Origin: a virus
Lineage: Duplodnaviria; Heunggongvirae; Uroviricota; Caudoviricetes
Length of the DNA stretch: 29,517 nucleotides
IMG/VR virus record: IMGVR_UViG_2531839446_000026
Span: 1-29,517 of that record
Strand: one strand, 5' to 3'
A model generated the notes under the pieces. It saw only the letters and a program-made list of their open reading frames with translations. It ran no database searches and was not told where the DNA came from. This document shows, piece after piece, positions 8,380 through 29,517 of the stretch. Each line of letters starts with the position of its first letter. Position 1 is the stretch's first letter. The position numbers were made by a program, and so were the translations under genes.

Positions 8380-10113
8380 ATGAGCCGGAAATCTTACCCC
8401 AACGTAAATGCAGCCAATCAGTATGCCCGTGATGTCGTGCGCGGAAAGATTGTGGCCTGCCAGTTTGTGATTCAGGCCTGCCAGCGCCATCTTGATGACC
8501 TGATGGCGGAAAAAAGTAAGTCGTTTCGTTACCGCTTCGACAAGGACCTGGCTGAACGGGCCGCCAAATTTATTCAGCTGTTGCCGCATACCAAGGGTGA
8601 GTGGGCATTCAAACGGATGCCCATCACGCTGGAGCCGTGGCAGCTCTTTGTGATCTGCTGTGCGTTTGGCTGGGTCAATAAAGGTACCCGGCTGCGCCGC
8701 TTCCGGGAGGTGTATACCGAAATCCCCCGTAAGAACGGCAAATCGGCAATCTCTGCCGGTGTCGCCCTGTATTGTTTTGCCTGTGATAACGAGTTTGGCG
8801 CGGAAGTGTATTCCGGTGCCACGACAGAGAAACAGGCGTGGGAAGTCTTTCGCCCGGCGCGACTGATGTGTAAACGCACACCCATGCTGACGGAAGCGTT
8901 CGGGATTGAGGTTAACGCCTCAAACATGAACCGTCCGGAGGATGGCGCGCGGTTTGAACCGCTGATCGGTAACCCCGGTGATGGATCATCACCCCACTGT
9001 GCGGTGGTGGATGAATATCACGAGCACGCCACCGATGCGCTTTACACCACGATGCTTACCGGGATGGGGGCGCGACGTCAGCCACTGATGTGGGCCATTA
9101 CTACTGCCGGGTACAACATTGAGGGGCCGTGCTACGACAAGCGGCGGGAAGTTATCGAGATGCTCAACGGGTCGGTACCCAACGATGAACTGTTCGGGAT
9201 CATCTATACCGTTGATGAAGGTGACGACTGGACCGACCCGCAGGTGCTGGAAAAAGCCAATCCAAATATTGGCGTGTCGGTTTATCGCGAATTTTTGTTA
9301 AGTCAGCAGCAGCGTGCGAAAAATAACGCCCGTCTGGCAAACGTCTTTAAAACAAAACACCTCAATATCTGGGTGTCGGCGCGTTCGGCGTATTTCAACC
9401 TGGTGAGCTGGCAGAGCTGCGAGGATAAATCACTGACCCTTGAGCAGTTCGAGGGGCAGCCGTGCATTCTGGCCTTTGACCTGGCGCGTAAGCTGGATAT
9501 GAACAGCATGGCGCGACTTTATACCCGCGAGATTGACGGTAAAACGCATTACTACAGTGTGGCCCCGCGTTTCTGGGTACCGTATGACACGGTGTACAGC
9601 GTCGAGAAAAATGAAGATCGACGGACAGCCGAACGCTTTCAGAAATGGGTGGAAATGGGCGTTCTGACCGTTACCGATGGTGCGGAGGTGGATTATCGCT
9701 ACATCCTCGAGGAGGCCAAAGCGGCGAACAAAATCAGCCCGGTCAGTGAGTCACCCATCGACCCCTTCGGGGCGACCGGATTGTCACATGACCTTGCTGA
9801 TGAAGACCTGAACCCCATCACTATCATTCAGAACTACACCAACATGTCCGACCCGATGAAAGAGCTGGAAGCGGCAATTGAATCGGGGCGCTTTCATCAT
9901 GATGGCAATCCCATCATGACCTGGTGTATCGGCAACGTGGTCGGCAAAACCATTCCGGGTAACGATGATGTGGTGAAGCCCGTCAAAGAGCAGGCGGAAA
10001 ACAAAATCGATGGTGCAGTTGCGCTGATTATGGCGGTTGGCAGAGCCATGCTGTACGAGAAAGAAGACACGCTGTCTGACCACATTGAGTCCTATGGGAT
10101 CCGCTCGCTTTAA
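8380..10113 (+). CDS. Terminase large subunit (HK97/Terminase_1 type)
   Basis: 577-aa ORF with P-loop RKNGKS and ATPase plus nuclease layout; follows terS. Confidence 0.95.
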
Positions 10114-24161: not shown

Positions 24162-24736
24162 CAAACGATGATTACATCCGTCTGTTGTCGGCACTGCTGC
24201 CGCCCGGTCCGGCGTGGTCAGCCAGCGATCCGGCGATTGCCGGTGCGGCACCGTCATTAACTCGTGTTCATCAGCGTGCGGATGCCCTGATGCGGGAGCT
24301 GGATCCGCGCACCACCACTGAACTGATAAACCGCTGGGAGCGTCTGTGCGGTCTGCCGGATGAATGTATTCCGGCGGGAACGCAGACCCTTCGCCAGCGT
24401 CAGCAACGGCTGGATGCGAAGGTTAACCTGGCGGGCGGCATCAACGAGGATTTTTATCTTGCACAGCTTGCTGCCCTGGGCAGACCAGATGCCACCATCA
24501 CGCGATACGACAAAAGCACTTTCACCTGCTCATCGGCCTGTACTGACGCGGTGAATGCACCGGAATGGCGGTATTACTGGCAGGTCAACATGCCAGCCAC
24601 CACCAACACCACCTGGATGACATGTGGCGATCCCTGTGATTCCGCACTGCGTATCTGGGGGGACACCGTTGTCGAGTGCGTGCTTAACAAACTCTGCCCG
24701 TCGCATACCTACGTAATTTTTAAATATCCGGAGTAA
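24152..24736 (+). CDS. Tail protein gp48 / YmfQ-like
   Basis: 194-aa ORF directly upstream of the tail fibre gene; equivalent to e14 ymfQ by position and size. Confidence 0.75.
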
Positions 24737-24739
24737 TCC

Positions 24740-25480
24740 ATGCATCGTATAGACACGAAAACCGCGCAGAAGGATAAGTTCGGCGCGGGTAAGAACGGTT
24801 TTACCCGTGGTAACCCCCAGACTGGCACGCCTGCCACCGATCTGGATGATGACTACTTTGACATGTTGCAGGAGGAACTTTGCAGCGTGGTGGAGGCATC
24901 CGATGCCAGCCTGGAGAAGGGGCGGCACGACCAGTTACTTACCGCACTTCGCGCGCTGCTGTTAAGCCGCAAGAATCCGTTTGGCGATATCAAATCGGAT
25001 GGCACTGTGCAAACGGCTCTCGAAAACCTTGGTTTGGGAGAAGGCTCTGCATTACCTGTTGGTGTCCCTGTTCCGTGGCCTTCAGCTACGCCGCCAACAG
25101 GCTGGCTGAAATGCAATGGCGCTGCCTTTGATAAGGTTAAATATCCCCGTCTTGCTACAGCATATCCATCAGGGAAACTACCTGATCTCCGCGGTGAGTT
25201 TATTCGTGGCTGGGATGATGGGCGCGGCATTGATACAGGGCGTGCTTTATTGAGTATTCAGAGTGATGAAGTCAGAAAGCTCGCATTAAAATACTGGGGA
25301 CCAGCTTCAAACAGTTCACCATCAAAAACATTTGCACTCAGCGACAGTGCCGGTGGCGGGTTGTACACGGATGGAATAAGTCAGGCAAGCGGTGGGATTA
25401 TCAACGCTTTTCAGCTCCCTGGCGGTAACGAAACCCGCCCACGAAATGTTGCATTTAACTATATCGTGAGGGCTGCATAA
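24740..25480 (+). CDS. Side tail fibre protein: constant N-terminal part fused to the currently expressed variable C-terminal part (Sv)
   Basis: Tail-collar-like C-terminal domain ([14 protein letters not shown]....YP.LA.....[21 protein letters not shown]); an inversion crossover site lies inside the gene at 25029-25043. Confidence 0.85.
25029..25043. repeat. Left inverted-repeat core of the Pin-type invertible segment (gix/pix-like crossover site)
   Basis: ttggtttgggagaag is the exact reverse complement of 26877-26891; flanking bases extend the similarity to ~21 of 25. Confidence 0.75.
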
Positions 25481-26082
25481 TGGATAATGTTGTATTAAAT
25501 AGCGAGTTTATTGCCACGAAGGCGGGGAATATTACCGTCTATAACTATGATAGTGAAACACGGGAATATATTTCCACATCAACTGAATATCTTGCTGTGG
25601 GTGTCGGTATTCCGGCATGTTCCTGTCTTGATGCACCTGGCATACATAAGGTTGGTTATGCAATCTGTCGTTCTGTGAATTTAAATTCATGGGAATATGT
25701 GCCAGACCATCGCGGTGAAATCGTCTATAGCACAGAAACAGGAGAATCAAAAGAAATCACAGCTCCGGGTGATTACCCTGAAAATACAACCACTATCGCC
25801 CCTTTATCTCCATACGATAAATGGGATGGTGAGAAATGGGTGACCGATACTGAGGCACAGCATAGCGCCGCAGTAGACGCGGCAGAAGCACAGCGCCAGT
25901 CACTGATTGATGCTGCTATGGCTTCCATCAGTCTGATTCAACTGAAATTGCAGGCCGGACGGAAACTGACGCAGGCAGAAACAACCCGACTTAACGCCGT
26001 GCTGGATTACACTGACGCGGTGACGGCAACAGATACCAGCACCGCGCCGGATGTCATCTGGCCTGAACTGCCGGAGGCGTAG
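25480..26082 (+). CDS. Tail fibre assembly protein (Tfa), active orientation
   Basis: 200-aa ORF whose start overlaps the tail fibre stop (TAATG); C-terminal ..TAPDVIWPELPEA motif typical of Tfa chaperones. Confidence 0.85.
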   Translation: MDNVVLNSEFIATKAGNITVYNYDSETREYISTSTEYLAVGVGIPACSCLDAPGIHKVGYAICRSVNLNSWEYVPDHRGEIVYSTETGESKEITAPGDYPENTTTIAPLSPYDKWDGEKWVTDTEAQHSAAVDAAEAQRQSLIDAAMASISLIQLKLQAGRKLTQAETTRLNAVLDYTDAVTATDTSTAPDVIWPELPEA

Positions 26083-26506
26083 GCCATTTAATATCTGGCG
26101 CACCGGAAGTATCGACCAGTTCCAGTGCGTCCAGATAATCCAGCCACAGATTATATTGCGCCAGTTCCTCGCCTTTCAGACGACCAATAGCGGCTTTACC
26201 GGGCCATTGTTTACTGTTCATATAATCGTTGGCCTGATTAATTAGTAGCTGTCTTTCTGATTCAGTAATTTCAATAAGTTCTTCATGCGTAGGGGCAGGA
26301 ATATCCGCCCACGCGGGCAGCCCATCACCTCCGGCAATACGGATTTTTCCTTGTGGCGGTTCAGCCATAAATTCACTGATAATATTTTGACTCACCTCCT
26401 TAGCATCTGATAAATCCCATCCCTCTGATTTATATTTATCAATCATATCCACAGGGAAAAAAGCATTATGCCTTGCGCTATAAACATATTCGTTCATATA
26501 AATCAT
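26054..26506 (-). CDS. Alternative tail fibre assembly protein (Tfa'), silent orientation
   Basis: 150-aa ORF on the opposite strand inside the invertible segment; C-terminal ..GAPDIKWPTPP.. parallels Tfa. Confidence 0.8.
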   Translation of the reverse strand: MIYMNEYVYSARHNAFFPVDMIDKYKSEGWDLSDAKEVSQNIISEFMAEPPQGKIRIAGGDGLPAWADIPAPTHEELIEITESERQLLINQANDYMNSKQWPGKAAIGRLKGEELAQYNLWLDYLDALELVDTSGAPDIKWPTPPAVQAR

Positions 26507-26517
26507 CCTGAATAAAA

Positions 26518-26931
26518 TTATTCACCAACAGCCCACCAACTGTAAGTCATTGACACCTTGTCGCTGGTTGATGCAGTTCTGTAAGCAGAATTAAAGCCGG
26601 TTAATGTTGGGCCTTCTACGGACATAACGAATCCACGCCCTGCACCAAAAGGCGCACCGCCATCGCCAGAATGGGTAAGAATGGCGATATCCGCTTTTTT
26701 AGGGAAAGGGATAGGAAATGTAATCCTCATTGTTTGCGTCGATAATTTCGGCATAGCCTCACCTCGACCATATTGCAGGATTTTCCCGTTGGGTAATTTC
26801 ATCCATCCATCACCACTGGCAAACGAGGCCATGTCCGGTATCTGATTTTCCCCTGTCCCCACATTCCGTTTTGCCGCTTCTCCCAAACCAACGTTTAAGA
26901 AAATGCAGAGATTATGGCTAACTGGCATCAT
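26518..26931 (-). CDS. Alternative tail fibre variable C-terminal segment (Sv'), promoterless and startless until inversion; only 26518-26891 lies inside the segment
   Basis: Reading frame through the right crossover site encodes ..NVGLGEAAK.., matching ..NLGLGEGSA.. at the left site in the tail fibre gene, so inversion fuses the constant part to this segment. Confidence 0.7.
26877..26891. repeat. Right inverted-repeat core of the Pin-type invertible segment
   Basis: cttctcccaaaccaa, reverse complement of 25029-25043; ~70 bp upstream of the pin start. Confidence 0.75.
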
Positions 26932-26958
26932 CCCCGGTTTTTACTCAGGGGAATGCTC

Positions 26959-27513
26959 ATGCTTATTAGCTATGTCCGCGTATCAACAAATAACCAGAAT
27001 ACGGAATTGCAGCGTAATGCGCTGGAGTGTGCAGGATGTGAGCTGATTTTTGAAGACAAGATAAGCGGTACAAAGTCCGACAGACCAGGACTGAAAAAGC
27101 TGCTCAGGACATTATCGGCAGGTGACACGCTGGTGGTCTGGAAACTGGACCGACTGGGGCGCAGTATGCGGCATCTTGTCGTGCTGGTGGAGGAGTTGCG
27201 CGAACGAGGCATCAACTTTCGTAGTCTGACGGATTCAATTGATACCAGTACCCCAATGGGGCGCTTTTTCTTTCATGTGATGGGTGCCCTGGCTGAAATG
27301 GAGCGTGAACTGATTGTTGAAAGAACAAAAGCTGGACTGGAAGCTGCTCGCGCACAGGGACGAATTGGTGGACGTCGTCCCAAACTTACACCAGAACAAT
27401 GGGAACAGGCCGGACGATTAATTGCATCAGGAGTTCCTCGCCAGAAGGTGGCGATTATCTATGATGTTGGTGTGTCAACTTTGTATAAGAGGTTTCCTGC
27501 AGGGGATAAATAA
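26959..27513 (+). CDS. pin: Serine DNA invertase, Pin/Gin/Hin/Cin family
   Basis: MLISYVRVSTNNQNTELQRNAL... with catalytic Ser in YVRVST and a C-terminal HTH; close to recalled E. coli PinE. ATG at 26959 preferred over the ORF-table start at 26914. Confidence 0.92.
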   Translation: MLISYVRVSTNNQNTELQRNALECAGCELIFEDKISGTKSDRPGLKKLLRTLSAGDTLVVWKLDRLGRSMRHLVVLVEELRERGINFRSLTDSIDTSTPMGRFFFHVMGALAEMERELIVERTKAGLEAARAQGRIGGRRPKLTPEQWEQAGRLIASGVPRQKVAIIYDVGVSTLYKRFPAGDK

Positions 27514-27619
27514 AGTTAAAGACACTTTGTGTACAAAAGAAAGTAAAACAACAGCAACTTGTTGCAATTTTATCAATAAAAGTAGTATTGTCGTGAAAAA
27601 TTGATTAAAGATTAATATT

Positions 27620-28453
27620 ATGCATGTTTTTGATAACAATGGAATTGAACTGAAAGCTGAGTGTTCGATAGGTGAAGAGGATGGTGTTTATGGTCTAATC
27701 CTTGAGTCGTGGGGGCCGGGTGACAGAAACAAAGATTACAATATCGCTCTTGATTATATCATTGAACGGTTGGTTGATTCTGGTGTATCCCAAGTCGTAG
27801 TATATCTGGCGTCATCATCAGTCAGAAAACATATGCATTCTTTGGATGAAAGAAAAATCCATCCTGGTGAATATTTTACTTTGATTGGTAATAGCCCCCG
27901 CGATATACGCTTGAAGATGTGTGGTTATCAGGCTTATTTTAGTCGTACGGGGAGAAAGGAAATTCCTTCCGGCAATAGAACGAAACGAATATTGATAAAT
28001 GTTCCAGGTATTTATAGTGACAGTTTTTGGGCGTCTATAATACGTGGAGAACTATCAGAGCTTTCACAGCCTACAGATGATGAATCGCTTCTGAATATGA
28101 GGGTTAGTAAATTAATTAAGAAAACGTTGAGTCAACCCGAGGGCTCCAGGAAACCAGTTGAGGTAGAAAGACTACAAAAAGTTTATGTCCGAGACCCGAT
28201 GGTAAAAGCTTGGATTTTACAGCAAAGTAAAGGTATATGTGAAAACTGTGGTAAAAATGCTCCGTTTTATTTAAATGATGGAAACCCATATTTGGAAGTG
28301 CATCATGTAATTCCCCTATCTTCAGGTGGTGCTGATACAACAGATAACTGTGTTGCCCTTTGTCCGAATTGCCATAGAGAATTGCACTATAGTAAAAATG
28401 CAAAAGAACTAATCGAGATGCTTTACGTTAATATAAACCGATTACAGAAATAA
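27620..28453 (+). CDS. mcrA: McrA-type HNH restriction endonuclease targeting modified cytosine
   Basis: 277-aa ORF recognised from memory as E. coli e14 McrA; C-terminal HNH motif HHVIPLSSGGADTTDNCVALCPNCHRELH; AT-rich. Confidence 0.9.
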   Translation: MHVFDNNGIELKAECSIGEEDGVYGLILESWGPGDRNKDYNIALDYIIERLVDSGVSQVVVYLASSSVRKHMHSLDERKIHPGEYFTLIGNSPRDIRLKMCGYQAYFSRTGRKEIPSGNRTKRILINVPGIYSDSFWASIIRGELSELSQPTDDESLLNMRVSKLIKKTLSQPEGSRKPVEVERLQKVYVRDPMVKAWILQQSKGICENCGKNAPFYLNDGNPYLEVHHVIPLSSGGADTTDNCVALCPNCHRELHYSKNAKELIEMLYVNINRLQK

Positions 28454-28686: not shown

Positions 28687-28851
28687 ATGCTGCGCCATAT
28701 GGGTTGGACTGAAGCCGCAGACCTGATTGTTAAAGGTATGGAAGGCGCAATCAACGCGAAAACCGTAACCTATGACTTCGAACGTCTGATGGAAGGCGCT
28801 AAACTGCTGAAATGTTCAGAGTTTGGTGACGCGATCATCAAGAATATGTAA
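28687..28851 (+). pseudogene. icd: Displaced 3' fragment of isocitrate dehydrogenase gene (icd'), marking the prophage right attachment junction
   Basis: Translates to [54 protein letters not shown], the C-terminal ~54 residues of Icd, with no upstream coding continuity. Confidence 0.85.
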
Positions 28852-28874
28852 TTTCTGCATGCGTTAAAAACTGT

Positions 28875-28904
28875 AACGGGCGTATAACACGCCCGTTGTT
28901 TTTA
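28875..28904 (+). terminator. Rho-independent terminator downstream of the icd fragment
   Basis: aacgggcg (28875-28882) / cgcccgtt (28890-28897) stem with a 7-nt loop, followed by gttttta. Confidence 0.7.
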
Positions 28905-29112: not shown

Positions 29113-29517
29113 CTAGATTAATGGTTTATTATTTTCTACATCTTCAATATATAAAAGCGTATTATCAATGGCGTAGTAACTGCGTTTGTTATAATTAACA
29201 TCAGTAACCCACCGGAAAACGCCAGCGCCTGCCAGTGTTGAACAGTATTCCCGAAATGTAGATTTTCCGCGAATATGAAGCAATGCGGCCTCTTTTATTT
29301 TAGCAGGGTTCTTGGTTGTACTAACTTTTAACAGGTTCCTGGTTCCTCTTAATAATAAAACCGTGTCATCGTGAGTAATAATTCTGATGTTATCCGTAGC
29401 CAGATAATAAATGTAATGTGCAATACGGTGATGTTTTAATTCTGAATAAAACCAGGAGAAGTTTTGCTCTTTTCTCACTTGCTCAAACATCTTTTGAAAA
29501 ACAACGACCTGATCCAT
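29113..29517 (-). CDS. DUF1398-family protein (YcgX/YdfO/YbcV-like), host-side flank; ATG falls on the last 3 bases of the window
   Basis: 134-aa AT-rich ORF; ..FWSLYSELKHH...HYIYYLATDN.......AGVFRWV.. pattern recalled for DUF1398 proteins. Confidence 0.6.
   Translation of the reverse strand: MDQVVVFQKMFEQVRKEQNFSWFYSELKHHRIAHYIYYLATDNIRIITHDDTVLLLRGTRNLLKVSTTKNPAKIKEAALLHIRGKSTFREYCSTLAGAGVFRWVTDVNYNKRSYYAIDNTLLYIEDVENNKPLI

Follow-up and report, generated by a model that had tools for sequence, protein, structure and literature searches.

Since the 1980s, the P segment of the e14 prophage with its invertase Pin has served, along with the related Gin, Cin and Hin, as a textbook example of site-specific DNA inversion. 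Knowledge of the P segment of Escherichia coli K-12 e14 and of its invertase PinE reportedly goes back to Plasterk and van de Putte in 1985 and to Mehta et al. in 2004. Both orientations of the K-12 segment coexist in clonal cultures (PMC4272514), inversion is carried out by PinE and, in trans, by PinQ (PMC12529663), and among 562 deposited E. coli sequences, 33% were found to have P-segment inversions (PMC12529663). Herein, a locus of the same kind is described in a stretch of 29,517 nucleotides (nt) from IMG/VR virus record IMGVR_UViG_2531839446_000026 (positions 1 to 29,517), which is referred to as the window at its full length. At 100% identity, it corresponds to the first 29.5 kb of E. 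coli contig ADUS01000054.1 (assembly GCA_000188875.2). The locus comprises a tail-fibre gene, an invertible segment with two alternative fibre tips and an invertase gene, pin, and it is very probably the P segment of an e14-family prophage at the E. coli icd gene, a tail-fibre switch of host range with two states that belongs to the Gin/Cin/Pin/Hin class. The system as such adds nothing new: the e14 P segment, Pin, Gin, Cin and Hin are already known, and the genes are annotated in public genomes.

Several features of the Din family are found together at this locus, namely the recombinase architecture, paired 26-bp sites and, at the population level, both orientations. The segment is bracketed by a perfect 15-bp inverted repeat, 25029-25043 (TTGGTTTGGGAGAAG) and its exact reverse complement at 26877-26891, with 1833 nt between the two arms. 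The arms lengthen to 25024-25043 and 26877-26896 with 19/20 pairing, and a base-by-base count over the flanked arms (25019-25043 and 26877-26901) gives 21/25, the same figure as had been proposed for the repeat in the initial annotation. Each arm forms half of a 26-bp imperfect palindrome of the Gin/Cin/Pin type. In alignment with K-12 pix, Mu gix and P7 cix, the left crossover site, pixL (25017-25042), reads CTCTCGAAAACC-TT-GGTTTGGGAGAA with the central TT at 25029-25030, and the right one, pixR (26878-26903), reads TTCTCCCAAACC-AA-CGTTTAAGAAAA with the central AA at 26890-26891; the two sites are inverted to each other and their central dinucleotides match (TT/AA). By scanning the 29.5-kb window for the core pattern TCNNAAACCNNGGTTTNNGA, derived from Mu gix, P7 cix and K-12 pix, with up to two mismatches allowed, exactly two matches were found, at 25020-25039 (no mismatch) and 26881-26900 (one mismatch). 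The chance expectation for such matches is 0.08, and two or more occurred in 1 of 100 shuffles. Of all perfect inverted repeats in the window whose arms are spaced within 3 kb, the 15-bp pair is the longest, and it is the crossover-site context, rather than the length of the repeat, that gives it its significance.

The genes around and between these sites follow an Sc/Sv-type layout, in which the constant 5' part of the fibre gene (Sc) lies outside the segment and the alternative in-frame 3' parts (Sv and Sv') lie inside it, each with its own chaperone gene. The fibre gene in its present state (24740-25480, + strand) encodes a protein of 246 amino acids (aa) with a Collar domain. Its constant N-terminal part of 101 codons (24740-25043, +) follows the Mu-gp48-like ymfQ in the late operon and ends ...ALENLGLGE. 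The variable tip now joined to it is the StfE-type Sv (25044-25480, +), which contains the Pfam Collar domain PF07484 (E = 2e-14) and matches, among PDB sequences, the T4 gp37 tip (2xgf, E = 1e-20) and short tail fibres. Directly behind it lies tfa (25480-26082, +), encoding a 200-aa TfaE-type assembly chaperone cognate to Sv (Pfam Caudo_TAP, E = 2e-32). The silent chaperone gene tfa', cognate to Sv', is found on the other strand (26054-26497, -; Pfam Caudo_TAP, E = 4e-30), and its 3' end overlaps tfa by 29 nt. Its open reading frame extends to 26506 (150 aa), the ATG at 26497 gives 147 aa, and relatives are likewise annotated with 147 aa. The silent alternative tip Sv' (26518-26876, -) contains the Pfam domain Gp53-like_C (PF21882, E = 3e-12), and its reading frame crosses the right repeat to an ATG at 26931 (26518-26931, -; 137 aa including the leader). 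This pin-side leader (26892-26931, -) corresponds to the start of K-12 'stfE', and similar leaders are found in K-12, MEI2A-0323, P0271 and 14EC007.

The segment holds four genes in two convergent pairs, each consisting of a fibre tip and its own Caudo_TAP chaperone. The reading frame across the sites is LGLGE-GSAL on the + strand and VGLGE-AAKR on the - strand, and inversion of 25044-26876 in silico yields an uninterrupted in-frame Sc-Sv' fusion of 220 aa. The open reading frames and Pfam domains confirm the initial annotation in that a segment of about 1.86 kb carries Sv and tfa on one strand and Sv' and tfa' on the other, and the open 220-aa fibre bears out its proposal that ..GLGE.. is encoded across both sites, with the tips exchanged in frame. 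Homology gives hints to the receptors of the two tips: the collar tip is similar to the collar regions of T4 gp37 and gp12, and the gp53-like tip to a short tail fibre.

Comparison among genomes shows the segment in both orientations. Collinearity with K-12 MG1655 holds in the flanks up to 25044 (98.2% identity, stfP side) and from 26877 onward (93.1% in the region compared), while 25024-25261 and 25430-26231 match K-12 stfE and tfaE on the opposite strand. For the StfE/TfaE-type module, the window is therefore flipped with respect to MG1655. Furthermore, in a survey of 5,426 complete E. coli genomes, with at least 80% coverage required for the window arrangement, 68 genomes carried the window orientation and 59 the orientation inverted in silico; the O157:H7 strain sets in this survey gave identical scores for either orientation. 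In the e14-like prophage of 14EC007, the window-type Sv and tfa are inverted, with the tip silent, beside a pinE with the same pin-side leader. The distal part of the collar tip (25262-25418) is unmatched in the closest complete-genome relatives, as shown for MEI2A-0323, and is present in 14EC007 and in P2-like prophages. A metagenome scan returned no match to the tip-specific inverted junction and one match to the window-orientation control, too few copies to say anything. The start of Logan contig L003 (SRR040465) at 26885, inside pixR, was considered as a sign of orientation heterogeneity and rejected as ambiguous, the branch produced by inversion being expected at 26876/26877. This short-read assembly also breaks inside the icdC repeat. 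Run SRR040465 probably derives from the source strain itself, as its contig shows 100% identity over 1832 nt.

Among the described systems, the closest is e14 of K-12. The e14 locus is recognised in the window, by comparison with the K-12 annotation, from the icd attachment site, from pin-mcrA-icdC downstream and from jayE-ymfQ-stf upstream. In addition, the two share crossover sites that are the same except for 1 nt, and both have two modules whose chaperone genes overlap by 29 nt. The StfE/TfaE module of K-12 is orthologous to that of the window, with 82-89% nt identity (89% for tfaE), but it lies on the pin side in the MG1655 reference, whereas in the window it is ON, and the distal part of the collar tip differs from that of StfE. 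The other module differs more strongly. Sv' has no DNA similarity to the K-12 StfP tip and only 28% aa identity over 87 aa, and the tfa' product is unlike TfaP along most of its length. With a second tip and chaperone that differ from StfP and TfaP, the segment is a variant of the cassette rather than the K-12 allele. Moreover, K-12 e14 is a 15-kb remnant, whereas the prophage in the window keeps full head, tail and lysis genes, and K-12 PinE lacks the glycine-to-serine change at residue 4 (G4S) that is present in the Pin of the window.

The resemblance extends to phage Mu, which likewise has Mu-type baseplate genes (gp44-48 homologues) upstream, a fibre fused from Sc and Sv, a cognate chaperone for each tip (U and U') and an invertase gene after the segment. 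The Mu gix sites share with those of the window the length of 26 bp and the AAACC-NN-GGTTT core, but their central dinucleotide is TC/GA instead of TT/AA. The G segment of Mu is larger, at 3 kb with an S protein of 504 aa as against a whole fibre of 220-246 aa in the window, and the Mu tips are unrelated in sequence to those described here. The C segment and Cin of P1/P7 agree with the window in invertase class, sites and fibre switch; they differ in the size of the segment (4.2 kb), in the fibres and in the position of cin, which lies on the other side relative to the constant part of the fibre. The initial annotation had placed the locus in the Mu G / e14 P-segment type, and the collinearity with K-12 e14, the near-identity of the pix sites and the match of Pin to Mu Gin all confirm this assignment.

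The pin gene (26959-27513, +) starts 55 nt beyond the right crossover site, directly after the segment as first annotated, and encodes a small serine DNA invertase of 184 aa with Pfam Resolvase (E = 3.5e-51) and HTH_7 domains. Among proteins of solved structure, it is closest to Mu Gin (3uj3 and 4m6f, E = 1.5e-93, residues 1-181), and it is 95% identical to K-12 PinE. The counterparts of the residues tested for catalysis in Tn3 resolvase (PMC2794168) are all kept, including Y5, R7, S9, D33, R65 and R68, and an alignment with gamma-delta resolvase gives the same register. A putative Fis-dependent recombinational enhancer (26977-27044) lies inside the 5' end of pin and is proposed from homology: the enhancer of this family is situated in the first ~90 nt of the invertase gene, and the P7 record annotates it at this place in cin. 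The region is identical at 58/68 positions to K-12 and at 54/68 to P7. A degenerate Fis consensus match at pin nt 71-85 is kept in the window, K-12 pinE, P7 cin and Mu gin, although the motif is too degenerate for proof.

By analogy with the characterised invertases, we infer the catalytic steps, the function of the enhancer and the receptor specificities of the two tips. Following Gin/Hin biochemistry, invertase dimers would bind both 26-bp sites inside the fibre reading frames, and the Fis-bound enhancer in the 5' end of pin would join them into an invertasome. Ser9 would then cleave both sites at the central TT/AA dinucleotide, and subunit rotation with religation would invert the 1.86-kb segment. 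In its current state, the late operon is predicted to produce the 246-aa Sc-Sv fibre, which ends in the collar-type tip, together with the 200-aa chaperone, and in the other state it would produce the 220-aa Sc-Sv' fibre, whose tip is gp53-like, together with the 147-aa chaperone. If Pin is weakened by G4S, inversion might depend on another Din-family invertase acting in trans.

The genomic setting is that of a prophage with its virion genes. Along the window, Mu-type baseplate genes, ymfQ, the fibre gene, the invertible segment and pin are followed by mcrA (27620-28453), an icdC remnant (28687-28851) and ycgX (29113-29517). The head and tail genes are collinear with those of the full-length e14-like prophage of MEI2A-0323, and the open reading frames for terminase, portal, protease, capsid, sheath, tube, tape-measure and baseplate proteins match its sizes. 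Judged from sequence, the structural (virion) genes look intact and the set is apparently complete.

Several findings count against the assignment to a working switch. The contig begins to the right of the prophage's left end, which carries int, xis and the repressor. The evidence for two orientations is at the population level, across genomes. The length of the inverted repeat taken alone is only marginal, since 5 of 100 dinucleotide shuffles reach a perfect inverted repeat of at least 15 bp. No + strand sigma-70-like site was found from pixR to the start of pin at the threshold of a scan of 24500-27700, whose totals did not exceed those of shuffles and which is uninformative. The most direct point concerns residue 4 of Pin, which is Ser as the result of a single G-to-A change at nt 26968 in pin codon 4. 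Gly occupies this position in 120/120 of the closest 90%-identity cluster representatives and in 134/142 among 150 diverse 50%-identity representatives, a level of conservation equal to that of the catalytic Ser, Arg7 and Tyr5, and most of the sequences without it are fragments or show other motif defects. Only two genomes and one read reassembly were found to carry the allele, and in both genomes the collar tip is ON.

Gly4 is the G of the GYxRVS motif, beside Tyr5, Arg7 and Ser9, and its replacement leads to the reading that the switch is frozen, with Pin disabled and the segment locked in the collar-tip-ON state unless the invertase of another prophage flips it in trans. This is quite possible, although the balance tips slightly against it. 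In its favour are the near-invariance of the glycine, the single nucleotide that separates the allele from otherwise near-identical G4 alleles, and the rarity of S4 together with the shared orientation of its two carriers. Natural loss of the invertase does occur, because among relatives with the same cassette pin is frameshifted at one locus (L005, GCA_047913685.1) and truncated and recombined at another (L006, GCA_974481805.1), at 8220-8770 in both. The shared orientation, however, is expected by chance half the time, and with so few genomes it carries no meaning. Besides the source assembly (GCA_000188875.2) and an independent reassembly of SRR040465, the allele is found in a second E. coli assembly, GCA_018568225.1, whose prophage (locus L007/L037) shows 166 differences over ~10 kb with an identical pin. 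The S4 allele is therefore real and inherited rather than an assembly error, and its persistence unchanged in two strains with such diverged prophages speaks against a dead enzyme. Serine is a small residue, and large serine recombinases have Ala, Ile or Val at the position of Gly4, so that glycine is not chemically essential there. In the papers of Olorunniji and Stark (2009) and of McLean et al. (2013), the glycine of the GYxRVS motif is not mentioned, and no experimental basis for calling G4S inactive was found there. Finally, inversion of the K-12 e14 segment in trans by other invertases is documented (PMC12529663). The other differences from K-12, D12N, D16E, N23E and E41D, were considered as damaging changes and dismissed, as they co-occur with Gly4 in a well-populated lineage (N12/E16/E23/D41) that comprises P0001, with 16 member sequences and 28 contigs, and many metagenome contigs; D12N falls within the putative enhancer. 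An inactive pin, for instance one with a mutated catalytic serine, had been named in the initial annotation as grounds for rejecting the switch. The catalytic serine and all other known catalytic residues are present, but Pin carries G4S at a glycine that is as conserved as they are. In the same way, the description of the locus as a complete host-range switch stands as far as the architecture is concerned and is, given G4S, a presumption with regard to the activity of Pin in this strain.

The history of the segment can be approached from P2-like prophages. The interval 25024-26894 is 99.3-99.6% identical in 7 of 8 P2-like E. coli prophage loci (L027, L028 and L030-L034), including O157:H7, and in the eighth (L029) the match is at 96.1% and extends no further than 26245. 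These cassettes contain, as in the window, both tips, both chaperones and the inner half-sites. They differ in the constant part, which belongs to a long P2 H-type fibre (473 aa in total), in the invertase, which is a 197-aa paralogue with 82% nt identity, and in orientation, the gp53-like tip being ON and the collar tip silent in the P2-like loci fetched. The identity ends at the crossover sites, beyond which the Sc side is unrelated and the invertase side falls to 82% nt, and this suggests that the crossover sites served as exchange points. Only ~20 bp of identity is shared at the cassette boundary, which is short for homologous recombination. The shared cassette agrees with an old view that fibre tips move horizontally between unrelated phages, as reportedly described by Haggard-Ljungquist et al. 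in 1992 and Sandmeier in 1994. In O157:H7 FRIK944, e14-like and P2-like prophages are co-resident. A tentative and on balance unlikely scenario is that the segment is a portable cassette, moved between unrelated co-resident prophages at the crossover sites, and that a P2-type cassette was acquired recently, G4S having since crippled Pin and locked the switch. As a separate observation, in two metagenome contigs (L010, 7111-9392, and L018, 5817-7933) the cassette is joined directly to a second, 197-aa invertase and to a P2-type sheath gene; these joins are either real hybrids or assembly chimeras formed at shared crossover sites.

It is improbable, by comparison, that the switch has become an anti-phage device of the host, in which the pin-side reading frame would be expressed alone and block the adsorption of other phages, the host range of the prophage itself being secondary. 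The idea derives from K-12, where Kirigo et al. reported that P-segment inversion creates StfE2, consisting of the stfE leader and the gp53-like StfP tip, which blocks adsorption of T2, and where the equivalent of the pin-side leader reading frame was treated as expressed (Kirigo et al., 2025; PMC12529663). The state of the window is analogous to StfE2, with an ATG-initiated leader joined to a gp53-like tip (26518-26931, -), such a leader is kept in every lineage examined, and defence genes lie next to it, namely mcrA in the window and different defence-like cargo in relatives. However, the leader overlaps pixR and the upstream region of pin, which would be conserved regardless of translation, and its conservation is therefore no proof that it is translated. 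Identity between the gp53-like tip and its K-12 StfP counterpart is only 28%, so the T2 result is not transferable. Unlike K-12 e14, the prophage has a full and apparently intact virion gene set, and with the virion genes kept an ordinary phage function is available. The last reading, that the repeat is a chance or historical feature between two convergent fibre genes that do not invert, is practically inconceivable and is refuted by the comparative data: although a perfect 15-bp inverted repeat arises in 5% of window shuffles, the arms lie in the same frame and at the same codons of both fibre genes, the family-specific site consensus is matched nowhere else in the window, collinearity with K-12, 14EC007 and P2-like prophages is lost, to the base, at the arms, and both orientations are frequent among genomes.

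Other parts of the window show further differences from the relatives. A gene for a 376-aa 'nucleoid-associated protein' (4076-5204, -), intact in MEI2A-0323, is split here by a frameshift into two open reading frames, both with 100% protein identity to their MEI2A-0323 counterpart. Collinearity with MEI2A-0323 is also lost at 6345-7398, the region of its S1-peptidase and HNH genes, and in the early region at 1-1304, which is ordinary mosaicism. The K-12 genes iraM and ymgK, situated between icdC and ymgL/ycgX, are absent from the window from 28860-28902 onward, and the two K-12 alignments overlap by 43 nt at this junction. The slot after pin holds varied defence-like cargo among related prophages. 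It is occupied by mcrA here and in K-12, by an HNH endonuclease, an AAA ATPase and an FRG-domain protein in 14EC007 (L036, 5409-8874), and by a 165-aa protein with a 917-aa AAA_15/SMC_N-like protein in several metagenome contigs (L004, 9117-12741).

Altogether, the e14-family P segment described here is of minor interest in three respects. It sits in a prophage with a full virion gene set, and its role in host range, which is unclear in the K-12 remnant, becomes testable in this setting. The cassette shared at ~99.5% identity and bounded by crossover sites provides a clean example of tail-fibre module exchange. In addition, the G4S allele is a naturally occurring change through which the invariant GYxRVS glycine of serine recombinases can be probed.

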